NCBI GenBank assembly: GCA_964632435.1 | Contig: CAZWEJ010000001.1 | Location: forward strand, 1,052 to 65,051 | Length of the DNA: 64,000 nucleotides | Source: an uncultured Candidatus Saccharimonadales bacterium | GTDB lineage: Bacteria > Patescibacteriota > Saccharimonadia > UBA4664 > SCTI01 | Direction: 5' to 3' | Part shown: piece by piece, positions 8,929 to 59,856 of the stretch | How the letters are laid out: each line of letters begins with the position of its first letter | Position numbering within the stretch: the first letter of the stretch is position 1 | The notes under the pieces: model-generated | Told to the model about the DNA's origin: nothing | The model's database searches: none | What the model saw: the letters and a program-made list of their open reading frames with translations, nothing else | Position numbers and translations under genes: made by a program

Positions 8929-10725
8929 ATGACCAACTTCAAAAATGCCCCAACCGAATGGGATCTATCTTATCTTCTTAAGAGTGATGATGATCCAAAT
9001 ATTGAGAAATATAGGCAAGAACTCACAACAAAAACGGATGAGTTTGTATTGAAATGGAGAGATAACCATGATTATCTTACAAATCCCAATAAGTTAAAGG
9101 CTGCTCTTGATGAGTTCTGCGAGCTCACTACAATGCATCAAAATGGGGCCGAAGCATTTTACTTTGGCCTTAGATCCACCCTGGATTCTATGAGCCCCGA
9201 GGTAAGGGCAAAAGAGAATAAAAGCGAGGAGTTCTCTAAGCAAATAGCCAACAAAATAGTATTCTTCCCATTGGCGTTGTCCAAGATAAAGGAAGAAGAT
9301 CAGAAAGTAATGCTCAACAGCGCCGTTCTCGAGGATTATAAGCATTTTCTAGAGCGAAAATTTGTTGAGGCAAAGCATCGGCTAAGCGTGAGTGAGGAAC
9401 AGATCCTAATGCTAAAATCTGGGCCAGCTTACGAGAAGTGGATCCAGTTTATTGATAACTCACTCAGCAAAGCAGAAGCCAAAGTTTTGAAAGAGGATGG
9501 CAAGTCAGAAATCGCTACACTCGAAGAGCTGCATACTTTGACGGCCAACCCAAAGAAAGAGGTTAGAGAGAGTGCAGCAAAGGCACTTTCTCATATTTTT
9601 GAGCAAACATCTGATATGGCGGAAGCAGAAATCAACGCTATCCTCGAGAATAAAAAGATTGATGATCATCTTAGAAATTTTGACCTGCCTGAGCAATCAC
9701 GCTTGCTATCAGATGATATCGATCCAGAGATAGTCGACGCTATGGTTGAAGCAGTAAAGAAAAATTATGATCTGTCGATAAGGTTTATGGATTTTAAGGC
9801 CAGGCTGCTTAAACAGCCAAAGTTTGAGTACTATGAGCGCGCCGTAGGCTATGGGGATGTTCAGAAAGAATATACCTATGAGGATTCATTGGAATTAGTT
9901 GATTCAGTATTTAATGAACTTGACCCTCAATTTTCTGAGATCCTTAGAGACCTCTCTAGCAAGGGGCTGATTGATGTCTACCCCAAAAAAGGCAAAAGAG
10001 GCGGCGCTTTCTGTGCTGGCTTCTCAAAGTCGCTTCCAACATATGTGATGCTCAATCATACAAACAAACTCAGAGATGTGGCCACCATTGCTCATGAGTT
10101 TGGCCATGCTATCAACAACGAACTAATGAGACTCAAACAAAATGAATTGAATTTTGCTACGCCTTTGTCGACCGCTGAAGTTGCTAGCACTTTTATGGAA
10201 GACTTTGTTTTCGACAGGCTGCTAGAAGAAGCTTCTGAAGAAGAGGAGCTCGTGTTGAGAGTAGGGCAGCTTCAGGACCAGATTGCCACCATTTTTAGGC
10301 AGGTTGCGGCCTATCGTTTTGAGAAAGACCTTCACACCGAGTTCCGAAAAACTGGGTATGTAGCTAAGGACAAGATAAATGAGCTTTTCTGCAACCACAT
10401 GAAAGAATATCTGGGCGATCATGCCGAAGGCGCCGAGAACTGGTGGGTATACTGGTCGCATATTCGCAGGTTTTTCTATGTTTACTCTTATGCAAGTGGG
10501 TTACTCATATCAAAAGCTCTCCAGTCTAAGGTGAAGCAGGACAAGCAATTTATTGGTCAGGTAAAGGAGTTTCTGTCGGCTGGAACATCAAAATCCCCTA
10601 AAGATATATTTCTCCAATTGGGTGTAGATATTAGTGATAGTAACTTCTGGAAACAAGGAATTAGTGAAATAAAGTCGCAAATTGATCAAACTGAGAAACT
10701 GGCCAAAAAGCTAGGCAAAATATAA
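8929..10725 (+). CDS. pepF: Oligoendopeptidase F (M3B peptidase)
   Basis: HEFGHAINNE zinc-binding HExxH motif; about 600 aa, typical M3B length. Confidence 0.85.
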   Translation: MTNFKNAPTEWDLSYLLKSDDDPNIEKYRQELTTKTDEFVLKWRDNHDYLTNPNKLKAALDEFCELTTMHQNGAEAFYFGLRSTLDSMSPEVRAKENKSEEFSKQIANKIVFFPLALSKIKEEDQKVMLNSAVLEDYKHFLERKFVEAKHRLSVSEEQILMLKSGPAYEKWIQFIDNSLSKAEAKVLKEDGKSEIATLEELHTLTANPKKEVRESAAKALSHIFEQTSDMAEAEINAILENKKIDDHLRNFDLPEQSRLLSDDIDPEIVDAMVEAVKKNYDLSIRFMDFKARLLKQPKFEYYERAVGYGDVQKEYTYEDSLELVDSVFNELDPQFSEILRDLSSKGLIDVYPKKGKRGGAFCAGFSKSLPTYVMLNHTNKLRDVATIAHEFGHAINNELMRLKQNELNFATPLSTAEVASTFMEDFVFDRLLEEASEEEELVLRVGQLQDQIATIFRQVAAYRFEKDLHTEFRKTGYVAKDKINELFCNHMKEYLGDHAEGAENWWVYWSHIRRFFYVYSYASGLLISKALQSKVKQDKQFIGQVKEFLSAGTSKSPKDIFLQLGVDISDSNFWKQGISEIKSQIDQTEKLAKKLGKI

Positions 10726-10742
10726 GTCCATAAAAAGCGAAA

Positions 10743-10790
10743 TCCCCCGCCATAAATCCGCGATGCGGAAGTTTGACGGGGGTTTCGTTC
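10743..10790. terminator. Nested GC hairpin between convergent pepF and the minus-strand small gene; candidate bidirectional terminator
   Basis: cccccg...cggggg outer stem enclosing ccgcgatgcgg, followed by tttcgtt. Confidence 0.4.
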
Positions 10791-10801
10791 ACATCAGGGT
10801 C

Positions 10802-11083
10802 CTAGAACCCGAAGACTCGCCGGGCACGTACCCAGCCACTGGGAAATGCGATGGCGATGAGGACTACCCCGAAGAGGGTGGCGCCGATAGCCATGAAGTC
10901 CCTGATGTTGGAGACGGCGTAGAGCCCCTCGTACATGAACAGCTTTGCAGCTGCCCAGCAGAAGAGGATTCCGAGAACGCCGAGGACGAGCCTGAAGACG
11001 TTCGCGGGGCAGACCCACTCCTTGATGCCAATCGCCCAGATGGCGATAAAGGCGAAAAAACGCTGGATGGCGGGGGACACCAT
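10802..11083 (-). CDS. Small 3-TM membrane protein encoded in a GC-rich islet
   Basis: Three predicted TM helices; RBS AGGAGG 6-8 nt upstream of the ATG on the minus strand; local GC is far above the surrounding genome. Confidence 0.5.
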   Translation of the reverse strand: MVSPAIQRFFAFIAIWAIGIKEWVCPANVFRLVLGVLGILFCWAAAKLFMYEGLYAVSNIRDFMAIGATLFGVVLIAIAFPSGWVRARRVFGF

Positions 11084-11275
11084 TTCCTCCTGTAGTGAAC
11101 GAAAGTTGCAGCCAAAACGTATTTCTACGTCAAGGCATGATCAGTATAGTACCACTTCTGTAAGTATTTGTCAATACTCTTATGCTTCTTGGCCAACAGA
11201 TTGACATAAGGGGAAAAGTGCTCTATCGTTTTGGGCGAGAAGTGGAATACGCCACGTCTTGATCCAAGGGGTTTC

Positions 11276-11491
11276 ATGAAACGTATCTGTAAGCTGGTAT
11301 TCGTCCTTCTGGCCGCTTGGTTGGCATATCTTGGTATCGAGGCTCACCGCTTCAATCGTAGGGAGAGAAGGGCTCGCGGCTTCAAGCCGAAAAGCTTCTT
11401 CGCTCTAGATTCCAACGGTCGGCTCAGCGAAGTGGATGTCGATAATTTCCTCCATATGACTGCCGTCCTCGACCCCACGGAGGTGCCCTGA
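11276..11491 (+). CDS. Small single-TM protein (GC-rich islet)
   Basis: ATG preceded by AAGGGG; TM helix ICKLVFVLLAAWLAYLGI; overlaps the next ORF by TGATG. Confidence 0.35.
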   Translation: MKRICKLVFVLLAAWLAYLGIEAHRFNRRERRARGFKPKSFFALDSNGRLSEVDVDNFLHMTAVLDPTEVP

Positions 11492-11700
11492 TGGACGAAA
11501 CCTGCCACTACTGCGGTTCGATCCCTCATGCAATTGCCTGCCCCGAGCACCCTTCGAATGGCACCGGTCACCGCCTCCACATGAGGAGATGGGAGGCTGG
11601 GCGAAGGGAAGCGGCGAATGGAGGGATCTGTCGCAAGCCCGATGACCCGACCTACTGTCTCGGGTTCTACTGGCCGCACGAAGAGGAGGATGCAGCATGA
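11491..11700 (+). CDS. Small Cys/His-rich protein (possible zinc ribbon)
   Basis: CHYCGSIPHAIACPEH motif; coupled TGATG overlap with the upstream ORF; GC-rich composition makes the frame call uncertain. Confidence 0.3.
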   Translation: MDETCHYCGSIPHAIACPEHPSNGTGHRLHMRRWEAGRREAANGGICRKPDDPTYCLGFYWPHEEEDAA

Positions 11701-11858
11701 GCCTCCTCAATACGCCCCATCACGGCAAGCATCCCGCCTGTCTTGGTGGGGCGCTTGTCTTTTAAACCTTTCTGAGTTAGAATAACGGTATTGAAGTCGG
11801 CCAGCGGGTCGACTAAATTTTTGCCAAACAATTGAATAACAACAGAATAGGAACATAA

Positions 11859-13085
11859 ATGAACGCACAATTTTTAGCAGCAATTAATCATATAGCCGAC
11901 GAGAAAGGGCTTCCAAGAGAGACCATCCTCCAAACCGTTGAGGCAGCTCTTGCTGCAGCTTATAAGAAGGACTACGGTGATAAAGATCAAGATGTTCGGG
12001 TTGAACTCAACGACACAACTGGTGACATGAAGGTGTTTGTCTCGAAAGAAGTAGTTGCCGATGATACGCCAGAAGAGGACTTCAACGAACTTCTACATGT
12101 CCGGCTAAAGGACGCTCTCAAAAAAGATAAAGAAGCCAAAGTAATCGAGCGCAAGGATGATGAGGACGAAGAGAATGTCGTTGGGCCCTACACAGTTGAG
12201 TATGAGGTAGATCCCGGCGAAGGATTTGGCCGAGTTGCTGCACAGACTGCAAAGCAGGTGATCATTCAGCGGCTCCGAGAAGCCGAGCGTGAGATCATCT
12301 TTAATGAGTACAGCGATAAGGTAGACACTCTTCTTAACGGAACAGTTCAGCGTGTTGATGGAAACATCGTATATGTTGATATTGGTAAAACCAACGGGGT
12401 GCTCTTTACTAACGAGCAGATTCCTGGCGAGCGCTATTACCCAGGCCAGCGGCTTAAGGTATACCTCGCGCGAGTTGAGCAAACCGCTCGTGGACCTCAG
12501 GTTGTAATCAGTCGGGCACATGCCAAGATGGTTGAGCGCCTCTTCGAGCTTGAAGTTCCAGAGATCGAAACCGGAACAGTAGAAATTAAGGGAGTATCCC
12601 GAGAAGCCGGGACTAGAAGCAAGGTTGCGGTTAAGTCAAACAGCGACAGCGTAGACCCAGTTGGCACCTTTGTTGGTGGCCGTGGAGCTCGCGTGCAGGC
12701 TGTAATGGGTGAGCTCGGCGAGGAGAAGATCGACATCATTCTTTGGAATGAGGACCCAGAAACTTACATTATCAACTCTTTGAGCCCAACTAAGGTTCTG
12801 AGCGTTGAACTTGATGAGGCTGAGCACAAAGCCGTTGTTAAGGTCCCGGAAGATCAGCTTTCGCTAGCTATTGGTAAGCAAGGCCAGAACGTACGTCTTG
12901 CCGCCAAGCTGACCGGCTGGAATATCGACATCGTTAGCGCCGACGAAAGCAAGGTTGAAGCAACTGCCGATGCCGCCGTCGAGCCAAAAGAAAAGCCAAA
13001 GAAGGTTGACCTAGAAGGTTCGCTGATCGCCGCGGTTGAGCAGCAATCAACAGAAGAGACTCAGGAAAAAGAGGAAGACAAATAA
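11859..13085 (+). CDS. nusA: Transcription termination/antitermination factor NusA
   Basis: N-terminal NusA domain, S1 and two KH domains (GKQGQNVRLAAKLTGWNIDI), acidic C-terminal tail. Confidence 0.95.
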   Translation: MNAQFLAAINHIADEKGLPRETILQTVEAALAAAYKKDYGDKDQDVRVELNDTTGDMKVFVSKEVVADDTPEEDFNELLHVRLKDALKKDKEAKVIERKDDEDEENVVGPYTVEYEVDPGEGFGRVAAQTAKQVIIQRLREAEREIIFNEYSDKVDTLLNGTVQRVDGNIVYVDIGKTNGVLFTNEQIPGERYYPGQRLKVYLARVEQTARGPQVVISRAHAKMVERLFELEVPEIETGTVEIKGVSREAGTRSKVAVKSNSDSVDPVGTFVGGRGARVQAVMGELGEEKIDIILWNEDPETYIINSLSPTKVLSVELDEAEHKAVVKVPEDQLSLAIGKQGQNVRLAAKLTGWNIDIVSADESKVEATADAAVEPKEKPKKVDLEGSLIAAVEQQSTEETQEKEEDK

Positions 13086-26164: not shown

Positions 26165-26189
26165 GTTACAATAACGTGGTTATCACTCG

Positions 26190-26275
26190 GGCGAGTGGTG
26201 AAATGGTAGACACGCTAGCCTTAGGAGCTAGTGGGGGAAACCCCGTGGAGGTTCAAGTCCTCTCTCGCCCACCAA
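26190..26275 (+). tRNA. tRNA-Leu (anticodon UAG), class II with a long variable arm and encoded CCA
   Basis: Acceptor stem gggcgag/ctcgccc, anticodon loop CUUAGGA, long variable arm tgggggaaaccccgtg, T-loop GTTCAAGTC. Confidence 0.85.
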
Positions 26276-26372: not shown

Positions 26373-26822
26373 TTGAGCGATATTCATGTTGTGAGAAGGA
26401 CAGTTTTCGTCATCAGCCGAGATGAGCCGCCACAAGGAAGTGATTTGGTTAAGGCTAGAGTCCAGCATTCCGAGGACCCAACTTGGGAATCGAAGGTCTG
26501 GAAGGTCGCTTCAGTCTCGGGTGATCTGGATAGAAGGCTAGAGCTGTCGGAAAGGCAGAAGGCAGAAATTCGCCCAGGCTTTGTAACGCATTCAGGACCA
26601 AAGGCAGGGCGCTACGAGGTTCTCGGCTTGGCGTACTGCCAGGGCGAACTCCCAAAAATCAACCCAAACAGGGTCGGCGTCTTCTATCGGGCTTTGTATA
26701 GGTCCACTAACTGCCATGGGCCCTTCTGGTTCCGGCCCCTTTGGGGTCGCGGAGGCTGGTTTGTCCCTCTGGATGGCAAGGTCCGCTTCGTCCGTGCCGA
26801 CAAGGAACATGCTGCCGCATAG
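26373..26822 (+). CDS. Hypothetical protein (no recognisable domain) next to the tRNA-Leu gene
   Basis: TTG start with RBS GAGGGGG; GC-elevated composition (about 55%); followed by a strong terminator. Confidence 0.45.
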   Translation: MSDIHVVRRTVFVISRDEPPQGSDLVKARVQHSEDPTWESKVWKVASVSGDLDRRLELSERQKAEIRPGFVTHSGPKAGRYEVLGLAYCQGELPKINPNRVGVFYRALYRSTNCHGPFWFRPLWGRGGWFVPLDGKVRFVRADKEHAAA

Positions 26823-58134: not shown

Positions 58135-58419
58135 CTCGACCTAAGACATTAATAAAATTAATAGCTTGGGTTGAGTGACAAAGTGAGTGAGATGCAGGTG
58201 GGTGAGGCACGCTAGATGCCTCACCCTCCCTTTCCGCTAGATACCTGCATTCGGAAAAGCTGCTCCATCGGTAAAGATGCGTAGTGAATCCGACCACGCT
58301 ACGCGCCCGATTGGCGGCACATAGGCCGCGCTAAAGCTGGAGAGCCTTGAAGTTTTACGGGGCAACCTCCGTGTCGCCCCGATTTGTCCCCCCCGTGCCA
58401 TTCTTGGCGCGAGCTTGTT

Positions 58420-59694
58420 TTACTTCTTGGTCTTCGAACGCCGACGAGCGCCCTTGGTTCCGGAGCGCTCACCCTTGGCGTTAACGCCCACGTTGCCGCG
58501 ACGGTTACGCCTCGGGTCGTCCGGACCCTGCGGGTTAGCCTTACCGATCCTGGGGCCGGCTCCAGGAATCTTCGGGGTGTTAGGCTCCTTCGACTTCTTG
58601 GCGGCCTTGGAGCCACCAGCCTTTCCGCGGTTGCGCTGATCGACCTGCTTGACCCGATTACTGCTTGCGCGAGCATCGCGGTCGAGCTTGCTCAGAACCA
58701 TCATGAGCTTGCTGTCCAGCTTGAGGTTCCCCCTCAGAATGCGCAGCGCATGGTGAATATCACGAACGTTCTGTCGGGTCTTCAGGATCTCCTCCGCCAG
58801 ATTCTCAATCGGCTGAGTCATCAGCATCATGAGGTACGAGCCGGGGTCGATCTCCTTGATCCCCTCGCTGAAGGCGTTGATCCGCCTCTGGCGAGTGGCT
58901 TCGATCTCCGAGATCATCTCGGAGATCTTCTGCTGAGCCGCCGCCCTCTTGCTGAGGCTCTGAAGAGCGATGATCATCGAGGCGTTGGGCCGAAGCTGCG
59001 CCTTCATGATCCGCACGGCGTTCAGCTCGCCGTAGACCGAGTTGCCCTCCTTCAGAAGCGTCTCGATGAGCTTATCGAGAGGCTCATTGAAGATCCGATG
59101 GAGGTACGTGCCCTCATCGATCAGATGGAGGTCATCCATGAACTCCTCCCGAAGGGTATCGATGCGACGCTGGAGGGCGGCCTTCTCGGACTCAGCCTTG
59201 GTGGTACCCTCATCGCACAGGCGCTTCAGCGTCTGCATGAAGTCGCTCTCATCCTCGAGCTGCTTCATAACCCCCAACATCGCTTCGGTGACCGTAATGC
59301 CACGCCTTCTGGCGTCGTACGTTGCGGTCTGCATGAGGGGGAAGTGGATCAGGTGGTAGAGCCGGGTGTCCTGCTTGATCAGACTCACGCCGTTGCCGTA
59401 CTTGGCAATCGCGTCCGTCTTGAGACGCTCGGCTTTCGCCGAGACCTCGTTGAGATCAACGCTGTCGCCCTCGACGTAGCCGGTCGAGAGATCCTCGACG
59501 CGGTGACGCCTGGGAGCGCTACCAGTAGTCGAGCGCTTGGGGCGACTCTTCCGCCCCTTCTGCCTGCGAGGCCGACGCGACCTGATCGCCTGCCCGAAAG
59601 CAGACATCAGTTCGTCGGTTGTCGCGACCCGATCGTCGGCCGGGGCCGGATCGGAGGTCTCCCCCTGGGGATTGACCTGGGGCGAAATCGCCAT
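58420..59694 (-). CDS. GC-rich foreign-looking gene: 424-aa protein with an internally duplicated helical domain and strongly basic Arg/Lys-rich N- and C-terminal tails (candidate nucleic-acid-binding protein)
   Basis: Minus-strand ORF with protein-like composition, whereas the plus-strand antisense ORF is L/R/G-rich. The start at 59694 is preferred because of the RBS GAGGTGA 4 nt upstream. Internal repeat: LIDEGTYLHRIFNEPLDKLIETLLK versus EIDPGSYLMMLMTQPIENLAEEILK. Local GC is about 60% against about 46% for the flanks. Confidence 0.55.
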   Translation of the reverse strand: MAISPQVNPQGETSDPAPADDRVATTDELMSAFGQAIRSRRPRRQKGRKSRPKRSTTGSAPRRHRVEDLSTGYVEGDSVDLNEVSAKAERLKTDAIAKYGNGVSLIKQDTRLYHLIHFPLMQTATYDARRRGITVTEAMLGVMKQLEDESDFMQTLKRLCDEGTTKAESEKAALQRRIDTLREEFMDDLHLIDEGTYLHRIFNEPLDKLIETLLKEGNSVYGELNAVRIMKAQLRPNASMIIALQSLSKRAAAQQKISEMISEIEATRQRRINAFSEGIKEIDPGSYLMMLMTQPIENLAEEILKTRQNVRDIHHALRILRGNLKLDSKLMMVLSKLDRDARASSNRVKQVDQRNRGKAGGSKAAKKSKEPNTPKIPGAGPRIGKANPQGPDDPRRNRRGNVGVNAKGERSGTKGARRRSKTKK

Positions 59695-59856
59695 GTTATC
59701 ACCTCGTTTGGGAAGAGCCATAACTTCTGACTCACTTTGTCAAAAAAACATCCGGATTGTTGCACCCGGAAGTTGCGCCAATATTAACATAACTATCTTT
59801 ATCTGTCAACCACCTTACGTCTGGCCACTAAAACATAACCGCTATATAATAATTTT

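Follow-up and report, generated by a model that had tools for sequence, protein, structure and literature searches.

How does a kilobase of GC-rich DNA come to lie between two housekeeping genes of an uncultured Candidatus Saccharimonadales bacterium, and are the small open reading frames (ORFs) on it real genes? The question was raised by a stretch of 64,000 nucleotides from contig CAZWEJ010000001.1 (assembly GCA_964632435.1), referred to here as the window, in which positions 10740-11720, between pepF and nusA, carry three ORFs that we named o93, o71, and o69 after their lengths in amino acids. The original prediction, made from the sequence alone, took this islet to be a horizontally acquired mini-module of unknown function, with o93 reminiscent of holin-like or small toxin/immunity proteins. 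Patescibacteria genomes are small and rich in unannotated small membrane proteins, and there is almost no information on which of them are important to epibiotic life. The reading that we consider probable is that the three ORFs form a resident, clade-restricted accessory cassette of orphan genes, arranged as two divergent, insulated units, in which the membrane genes are swapped independently between species that are about 81% identical and the GC content at third codon positions (GC3) remains stable.

RESULTS

Distribution of the cassette

Relatives of the cassette were confined to this locus and to four Saccharimonadales lineages. When 5.8 billion proteins were searched through a word index, only the same species and one sister cluster were returned. 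A HMMER scan of 1.84 billion representative proteins with o93, which was the only search able to reach actinobacterial proteins, returned only P0005 and P0006, both of which lie within the same module; two further matches were rejected as low-complexity repeat proteins. A scan of JGI metagenomes with the o93 alignment recovered the same contig only. By tblastn, none of the three proteins had a match in phage records (for o93, no E value was better than 0.4), nor did o93 and o69 have one in plasmids, and pattern scans of IMG/VR viral contigs for o93 and o69 also found nothing. Phage and actinobacteria, among which the original prediction proposed to search, thus yielded no homologue in the phage records or, for o93, among the representative proteins. 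Pfam, PHROGs, PADLOC, and NCBIfam held nothing significant for o93, o71, or o69, and a literature search on similar Saccharibacteria loci found nothing useful.

The same module occupied the same site in the sister species (contigs L002 and L003 and the metagenome-assembled genome, or MAG, L001/L015, GCA_964423965.1), in L051, where the order is the pepF end, o96/97, a divergent o60 with o69, and nusA, and in L049 and L050, where a terminator, o92, the conserved promoter core, o66, and the start of o69 follow one another. The NusA of the window was 97% identical to that of the sister MAG, and its further relatives came exclusively from Saccharimonadia or Saccharibacteria MAGs. More distant relatives, at 77 to 85% NusA identity, also keep pepF next to nusA, and they do so without the module: their gap of 0.4 to 1.3 kb holds unrelated ORFs, nearly all with transmembrane (TM) segments, for which Pfam gave no family. 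Presence of the islet with similar GC in all relatives, by which the original prediction would have been refuted, was thus seen for the nearest relatives and not for the more distant ones. Family hidden Markov models (HMMs) found no cassette matches in the loci of the distant relatives or elsewhere in the window, and a distant relationship of the cassette to the slot ORFs found there was considered and rejected, since neither blastp nor the family HMMs gave any match. The loci L016 to L020 and L044 each have their own unrelated slot ORFs, nearly all encoding TM proteins. In L020, a 74-amino-acid (aa) ORF with a CxxC...CxxC pattern stands beside a 153-aa membrane ORF, GC3 0.95, and the slot ORFs of L019 and L044 share a weak similarity (E = 3e-4).

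Age of the cassette and exchange of its alleles

The age of the cassette was gauged against nusA. By this gene, the window, L002, and L051 are about equidistant, with 81 to 82% nucleotide identity and differences at 53 to 64% of the fourfold degenerate sites, which is near saturation (78/122 for the window and L002; 64/120 for L002 and L051). The o69 genes differed at approximately 50% of such sites in all pairs, and the value for the window and L002 (12/23) was indistinguishable from that of nusA (p = 0.35). Because o69 is as diverged at these sites as nusA, the cassette predates the splits of these species. A different result was obtained for the two membrane genes. The o93 genes of the window and L002 differed at only 9 of 46 fourfold sites (20%; p = 2.7e-7 versus nusA), and the left exchangeable tract, which covers most of o93, was 91% identical in nucleotides, with both o93 proteins approximately 52% identical to that of L051. 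For the o71 equivalent o60, it was L002 and L051 that were alike, with differences at 4 of 25 sites (16%; p = 7e-4 versus nusA), and the window o71 was 32% identical to both. The sliding identity profile was a mosaic with sharp block boundaries, from which two exchangeable tracts were delimited (Table 1).

Contigs L052 and L053 have an L002-type backbone, being 96 to 100% identical to L002 over most of the covered pepF 3' end, the promoter core, o60, and o69. At approximately 10800-11014, however, 94 of their 97 informative sites were of the L051 type, and the return to the L002 type fell at 11014-11026, in the invariant GIKEW codons of o93. Across the o93 tract, L002 and L003 were only about 60% identical in nucleotides to L052 and L053. 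This mosaic indicates that one species carries two o93 alleles, whose proteins are approximately 53% identical. In the sister MAG, a gap of 100 Ns (3801-3900 of L001/L015) begins at the pepF stop codon, reaches the GIKEW codons, and so coincides with the exchangeable tract, which suggests that alleles were mixed, through strain heterogeneity, in the co-assembly.

The breakpoints map to four places: 10712-10800 in the terminator, the GIKEW codons, ~11207 in the promoter core, and ~11465, where o71 ends and the Shine-Dalgarno (SD) sequence of o69 lies. The anchors at these places are short invariant stretches, namely GACGGGGGTTTCGTTCAC in the terminator, CCACTCCTTGA, the promoter core with TTGTCAATACTCTTATGC, and the end of o71 with the start of o69. 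When the allele types of o93 and o71 are denoted A, B, and C, the window combines A93 with A71, L002 combines A93 with B71, L051 and L052 combine B93 with B71, and L049 combines C93 with C71. These combinations imply that the two variable genes are exchanged independently.

Coding status of the reading frames

We investigated whether the ORFs evolve as protein-coding genes. Compared to L002, the differences at first, second, and third codon positions were 5/5/15 in o93 and 6/8/29 in o69, while the overlapping antisense frames gave 22/8/7, 26/8/6, and 7/30/9. Since the antisense patterns are not led by the third position, the antisense ORFs are shadows of GC-rich sequence. One of them, a 110-aa plus-strand ORF at 10763-11095 (pattern 22/8/7), was rejected as a real gene; its ATG is lost in L002. 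Automatic calls on the public contigs L005 to L010 of this species give this 110-aa shadow ORF, and others give o93 with a GTG start (92 aa). The locus is thus an annotation trap, in which public calls often take the antisense ORF in place of o93. For the recently exchanged tracts, the rough dN/dS was approximately 0.2 to 0.3 (about 0.2 for o93), a value that indicates that selection within allele classes is purifying and not diversifying.

It could be argued that there are no genes here at all, and that chance open frames fill a GC-rich spacer whose real function is regulatory, through the nusA leader and the terminators. GC-rich DNA does give rise to long ORFs in more than one frame (here, 14 that reach 50 aa overlap), gene callers differ on the strand at o93, and conserved terminators and a nusA leader do exist. 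However, substitution was led by the third position in a single frame at o93 and in a single frame at o69, the SD sequences and the overlap that couples o71 to o69 are kept in four lineages, o93 homologues of about 50% identity retain their length and motifs, and the order GC3 > GC1 > GC2 was found only in the proposed frames. An islet devoid of genes is extremely improbable in light of these patterns, which argue that o93, o71, and o69 are real translated genes under purifying selection. The coding signal on which the original prediction depended was therefore present.

Composition and codon usage

The islet had been described as an outlier in composition and codon usage, and this was borne out. 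Positions 10740-11720 contain 55.2% GC, compared to 46.7% for the whole window (10726-11858, 54 to 55%), and only 1.9% of all 981-bp segments are as GC-rich, the others all falling within an islet at 57.7 to 59.2 kb. By part, the GC content was 59.9% in o93, 54.0% in o71, and 61.0% in o69 but only 42.9% in the central promoter region (11100-11276). The excess is located at synonymous sites: GC3 was 0.82 for o93, 0.63 for o71, and 0.67 for o69, compared to 0.434 ± 0.036 for 28 reference genes and a mean of 0.446 ± 0.062 (maximum, 0.644) for 140 gene chunks of 270 nucleotides (nt). The GC3 of o93 was the highest among the six-frame ORFs of at least 60 aa in the window, its codons mostly end in C (ATC, TTC, GCC, CTC, GTC, and GGC), and its codon score of -0.119 lay beyond all but 1 of the 140 gene chunks. 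Across all four lineages, the GC3 of o93 was 0.81 to 0.84 and that of pepF and nusA 0.36 to 0.49. The unrelated slot ORFs of the distant relatives L017 to L020 were GC3-rich as well, with values of 0.71 to 0.95 versus 0.47 to 0.61 (for example, 0.76 versus 0.48 in L017 and 0.95 versus 0.51 in L020); the excess was marginal in L016 (0.75 versus 0.68 to 0.70) and absent in L044 (0.56 to 0.60 versus 0.71).

A composition of this kind may be read as the mark of a recent arrival, that is, of a mini-module from a high-GC donor, either the actinobacterial host or its phage, that has not yet ameliorated. C-ending codon usage like that of o93 resembles actinobacterial usage, the slot ORFs of relatives also reach a GC3 of 0.95, and the module is missing from relatives at 77 to 85% NusA identity. 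Yet no homologue was found beyond the locus in the protein, phage, plasmid, and viral searches described above. No recombinase or mobility gene such as an integrase was found near the cassette in the ORF list or by Pfam, no tRNA lies within 14 kb, and the repeats at the borders are merely short, chance-level ones. The module also sits at the same site in four lineages, o69 has accumulated synonymous differences as nusA has, and GC3 is equally high in alleles whose proteins are about 50% identical. We therefore consider the recent foreign islet distinctly unlikely, with its "recent" part largely refuted. The horizontal movement seen here is an exchange of alleles between sister species within a resident locus, which the original prediction could not have seen; against a recent acquisition by this genome stand the same module, site, and GC3 in three other lineages.

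In the resident cassette that we favor, high GC3 and C-ending usage are a stable trait of every allele and not an un-ameliorated scar of recent transfer. Because the excess is equal in alleles that have diverged by about 50%, a one-off recent import does not fit, and the excess must be maintained. One way would be a shared pool of high-GC cassettes that replace residents faster than these ameliorate, and the other would be a local force such as GC-biased gene conversion, which has been associated with recombining genes in bacteria (PMC4450053).

Two other GC-rich regions were seen in the window. The second islet that the original prediction reported near 58 kb is real: positions 58200-59730, between rpsI and a gene with a TrkA domain, contain 58 to 65% GC in 300-bp segments. 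It carries a 433-aa minus-strand ORF (58420-59721; GC3, 0.79) that is called as a gene in public contigs of the same species and for which Pfam and NCBIfam gave no family; an overlapping 448-aa plus-strand ORF looks like a shadow (GC1, 0.78). A third, milder patch (26373-26822; 55% GC) directly follows tRNA-Leu (26189-26274). Its 149-aa ORF has a TTG start, no Pfam family, and a GC3 of just 0.59, which puts it in a class other than that of the two islets.

Properties of the three proteins

The 93-aa minus-strand ORF was present as originally predicted, with three TM segments by hydropathy and a perfect AGGAGG. This SD sequence (11091-11086) lies at a spacing of 2 nt from the ATG and of 5 nt from the codon that follows it, a GTG at 11080, and the o93 of L049 has the GTG start alone and no ATG. 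Given this spacing and the L049 sequence, the GTG at 11080 is the likelier start, and the protein is probably 92 aa long. An AlphaFold (AF2) model with a predicted local distance difference test (pLDDT) score of 72.6 consisted of three long helices and a short C-terminal helix (residues 4-24, 28-50, 58-79, and 81-91), and the C terminus, RARRVFGF, is basic. The homologues P0005 (48% identity) and P0006 (51%) are of the same length and also have three hydrophobic segments, and the conserved motifs of the family are GIKEW, LFxY..YA..IRD, and FPxGW.

A perfect 10-bp inverted repeat, TTTCGTTCAC / GTGAACGAAA (10785-10794 and 11094-11103), brackets o93, with both arms unchanged across four lineages. 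In the o93 mRNA, the right arm closely precedes the SD sequence, so that pairing between the 5' and 3' untranslated regions (UTRs) is possible; the repeat may equally reflect chance and conservation of the anchors. An invertible element or site-specific cassette was rejected, since the left arm belongs to the extended terminator stem, the recombination breakpoints miss the right arm, no recombinase lies nearby, and one 10-mer inverted repeat in 1.1 kb is near the chance expectation.

The o71 protein has one TM segment by hydropathy. Its equivalents are 60 aa long in L002 and L051 (o60) and 66 aa long in L049 (o66), and mutual identity among o71, the L002 o60, and the L049 o66 was 28 to 37%, with homology still detectable (E values from 1e-4 to 3e-7 in a small database). 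The SD sequence of o71 is present in all lineages. The LDPTE at the C terminus of o71 is conserved and shares its nucleotides with the GGAGG SD sequence of o69, so that its conservation may reflect a nucleotide rather than a protein constraint. As originally described, the ATG of o69 overlaps the o71 stop codon in the sequence TGATG, an arrangement for translational coupling. The zinc-ribbon-like motif that had been ascribed to o69, CHYCGSIPHAIACPEH, was present as described, and its Cys/His residues are conserved. The residues follow the pattern C5-x2-C8-x4-H13-x3-C17-PE-H20, with C47 and C56 in addition; C5, C8, H13, C17, and H20 are invariant in four lineages (the L049 copy is partial), and C47 and C56 do not vary among the three copies of full length. 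The match to PF21890 (Lin28-like zf-CCHC_2) was below threshold (14.3 bits against a cutoff of 27; E = 0.047), PF00098 was not reported in the Pfam scan, and an o69 profile run against PDB sequences returned nothing usable (best E = 1.9).

We also considered whether the cassette is a conflict module, in which o71 or o93 would be a small membrane toxin, holin-like or bacteriocin-like, accompanied by an immunity protein or antitoxin and by o69 as a regulator, with hypervariability arising from an arms race. Small hydrophobic proteins, divergent transcription, and coupled translation of o71 and o69 agree with such a module, as do alleles that diverge and turn over fast, and the size, three TM helices, and basic C terminus of o93 fit class I holins. 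On the other hand, the searches of PADLOC, PHROGs, Pfam, and NCBIfam were without matches, Foldseek comparisons of the o93 model to BFVD viral and PDB structures gave only E values above 0.5 (best BFVD hit, E = 0.53), no lysin or phage gene lies nearby, and o93 is under purifying selection by the dN/dS given above. In addition, o71 types A and B are both found beside o93 type A, and o93 types A and B are both found beside o71 type B (in a small sample), and this free reassortment makes it unlikely that o93 and o71 are an obligatory cognate pair, whether toxin and immunity protein or peptide and receptor. A holin is disfavoured for o93 because of its context and the missing profile match. The holin-like or toxin/immunity identity suggested in the original prediction thus drew no support from profiles or structures, and a conflict module with a cognate pair appears unlikely.

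Organization of the locus

Both flanking genes, pepF (M3 oligopeptidase; 8929-10725) and nusA (11859-13085), were confirmed by Pfam. Although the islet had been said to interrupt two housekeeping genes, only its position between them stands: it interrupts no gene and fills the intergenic slot, bounded by terminators (Table 1). The left terminator has T-tracts on both strands and folds with -28.8 kcal/mol on the plus strand (z, -4.1) and -31.5 kcal/mol on the minus strand (z, -4.4), and GACGGGGGTTTCGTTCAC within it is invariant in four lineages. The right terminator, T1, has a 16-bp stem (-26.8 kcal/mol; z, -5.3) followed by CTTGTCTTTT and is invariant in three lineages. Between them, the promoters of o93 and o71-o69 stand back to back and define two divergent units, with predicted transcription starts at about 11139 on the minus strand and about 11236 on the plus strand. 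The hexamers of the o93 promoter are invariant in four lineages and its spacer varies; the -35 context of the o71-o69 promoter, AACAGATTGACAT, is also invariant in four lineages, and the 18-mer TTGTCAATACTCTTATGC of the promoter core is shared by all copies of the module and has no second occurrence in the window. In the hairpin in the o93 5' UTR (-15 kcal/mol; z, -2.1), one UA pair is replaced by CG through compensatory change, and several further changes affect one side only. This intergenic core is at least 85% conserved across four lineages, even where the o93 protein is only 47% identical, and its strong conservation extends to cases in which the coding sequence is too diverged to be aligned. 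Rfam gave no family at the gathering score in the islet, and only chance-level matches at E values up to 10.

Table 1. Positions of cassette features and flanking signals in the window
Feature	Position	Strand	Description
Left exchangeable tract	10800-11014		o93 codons ~24-93, possibly terminator loop; from the L052/L053 pattern
Right exchangeable tract	11207-11465		-10 region, 5' UTR, and most of o71; identity of window to L002/L051, 40-55%; L002 to L051, 88-100%
o93	10802-11083	-	93-aa ORF; three predicted TM helices and basic C-terminal helix
o71	11276-11491	+	71-aa ORF; predicted bitopic, N-terminal TM helix and charged tail; hypervariable
o69	11491-11700	+	69-aa ORF; predicted soluble Cys/His-rich protein; carries CHYCGSIPHAIACPEH
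Bidirectional intrinsic terminator	10736-10790	both	Closes pepF (+) and o93 (-); left cassette border
o93 5' UTR	11084-11145	-	SD AGGAGG and small hairpin at ~11131-11116; conserved in four lineages
o93 sigma-70-like promoter	11146-11174	-	TTGACA-17-TACTAT, TG before -10; 10/12 matches (promoter scan)
o71-o69 sigma-70-like promoter	11201-11229	+	TTGACA-17-TATCGT; 10/12 matches (promoter scan)
Intrinsic terminator T1	11713-11753	+	Ends o71-o69 operon; right cassette border
nusA promoter-like site	11755-11783	+	TTGTCT-17-TAGAAT (promoter scan)
nusA leader hairpin and T-tract	11795-11826		-12.7 kcal/mol; nearly invariant in three species with saturated synonymous sites

The remainder of the slot, ~11755-11858, is the native nusA promoter and leader and lies outside the cassette. 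Its hairpin and T-tract look like a nusA leader attenuator, and NusA-dependent autoregulation of nusA is known from other bacteria. The pepF gene evolves faster than its neighbors: its protein was 83.6% identical to that of the sister species, compared to 96 to 97% for NusA and ClpC, and about 50% identical to those of more distant relatives, compared to 77 to 85%. The pepF 3' end is a mosaic too, with L052 departing from L002 only in a patch at ~10526-10625.

DISCUSSION

The answer that we favor is that a resident cassette, older than the species that carry it, has been kept at one intergenic site while alleles of its membrane genes moved between these species. On this reading, three orphan proteins stand as real genes, and gene flow between species that are about 81% identical is confined to a 1-kb slot, with none seen in the flanking housekeeping genes. 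The 40-point GC3 excess persists across deeply diverged alleles, which the customary reasoning of a recent transfer that has not yet ameliorated cannot explain.

Several points weigh against this reading. The divergence of about 50% between o93 alleles could have arisen by ordinary fast divergence followed by introgression rather than by balancing selection. In o93, the loops are conserved and the TM helices vary, which is not the expectation under diversifying selection on exposed surfaces. The o69 model had a pLDDT of 48 and is unusable, and metal binding is proposed from the motif. The reported effect of GC-biased gene conversion amounts to a few GC3 points, far below forty, and we therefore keep both such conversion and a shared high-GC pool as candidate causes of the excess. 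Finally, the census of alleles is small, covering four lineages, most of them on contigs of 0.8 to 8 kb.

With respect to function, the three products would act at the cell envelope. The coupled o71 and o69 would be made in a fixed proportion and would probably cooperate, o69 being a metal-binding partner or regulator in the cytoplasm. The pattern of exchange would reflect frequency-dependent selection at the strain level, for example, from phage or from the host-cell interface, and not a housekeeping role. A bolder proposal, which we hold to be quite improbable, is that the pepF-nusA slot is a dedicated site of exchange across species in Saccharimonadales, at which GC3-rich cassettes of small envelope proteins, ultimately taken from or shaped by a high-GC pool such as the hosts, set strain specificity, for example, susceptibility to phage or recognition of the actinobacterial host, and that o71-o69 would be a new membrane-tethered Cys/His metal-binding module. 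Should the cassette turn out to determine specificity for phage or host, it would make a useful strain marker and offer a lead on function; otherwise, it would be an ordinary orphan islet. The main value of the locus lies in the evolutionary genomics of Patescibacteria and in the lead that it gives on small envelope proteins.

Compared to known systems, the individual proteins show partial likenesses. With class I holins such as lambda S, o93 shares a length of about 92 aa, three predicted TM helices, and a short basic C-terminal segment, but it lacks a match to a Pfam or PHROGs holin profile, a dual-start motif, and an adjacent endolysin or spanin in a phage context. Its neighbors are instead pepF, o71/o69, and nusA, and purifying selection has conserved it, in four lineages, at a junction of housekeeping genes. 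The o69 protein begins as a CCHC zinc knuckle of the retroviral or Lin28 kind (C-X2-C-X4-H-X4-C) does, with C-X2-C-X4-H-X3-C conserved in four lineages, and its weak best matches among profiles and PDB sequences are Lin28 knuckles. Its last spacing is, however, one residue shorter (X3), and its conserved candidate ligands H20, C47, and C56 have no counterpart in the knuckle.

The locus as a whole can be set beside two kinds of variable region. Flexible islets or hypervariable slots between core genes are known in streamlined bacteria. The cassette differs from these in being very small (1 kb and three genes), in carrying no mobility or glycosylation genes, and in the extreme and stable GC3 excess of the slot occupants, but the pepF-nusA slot is likewise fixed across the clade, with a lineage-specific content that consists mostly of unannotated small membrane proteins. 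The comC/comD pherotype locus of Streptococcus and the agr hypervariable region of Staphylococcus are loci of allelic replacement with conserved anchors. The cassette has no sequence or domain kinship with them and no peptide-processing, kinase, or regulator domains by Pfam, and its two variable genes reassort independently rather than covary, so that the likeness lies in the pattern of exchange and not in signaling. In that pattern, the cassette resembles these loci: deeply divergent alleles occupy one position and appear to be moved by homologous recombination with crossovers in conserved flanks, the gene trees conflict with that of the backbone, and the polymorphism is found within a species.

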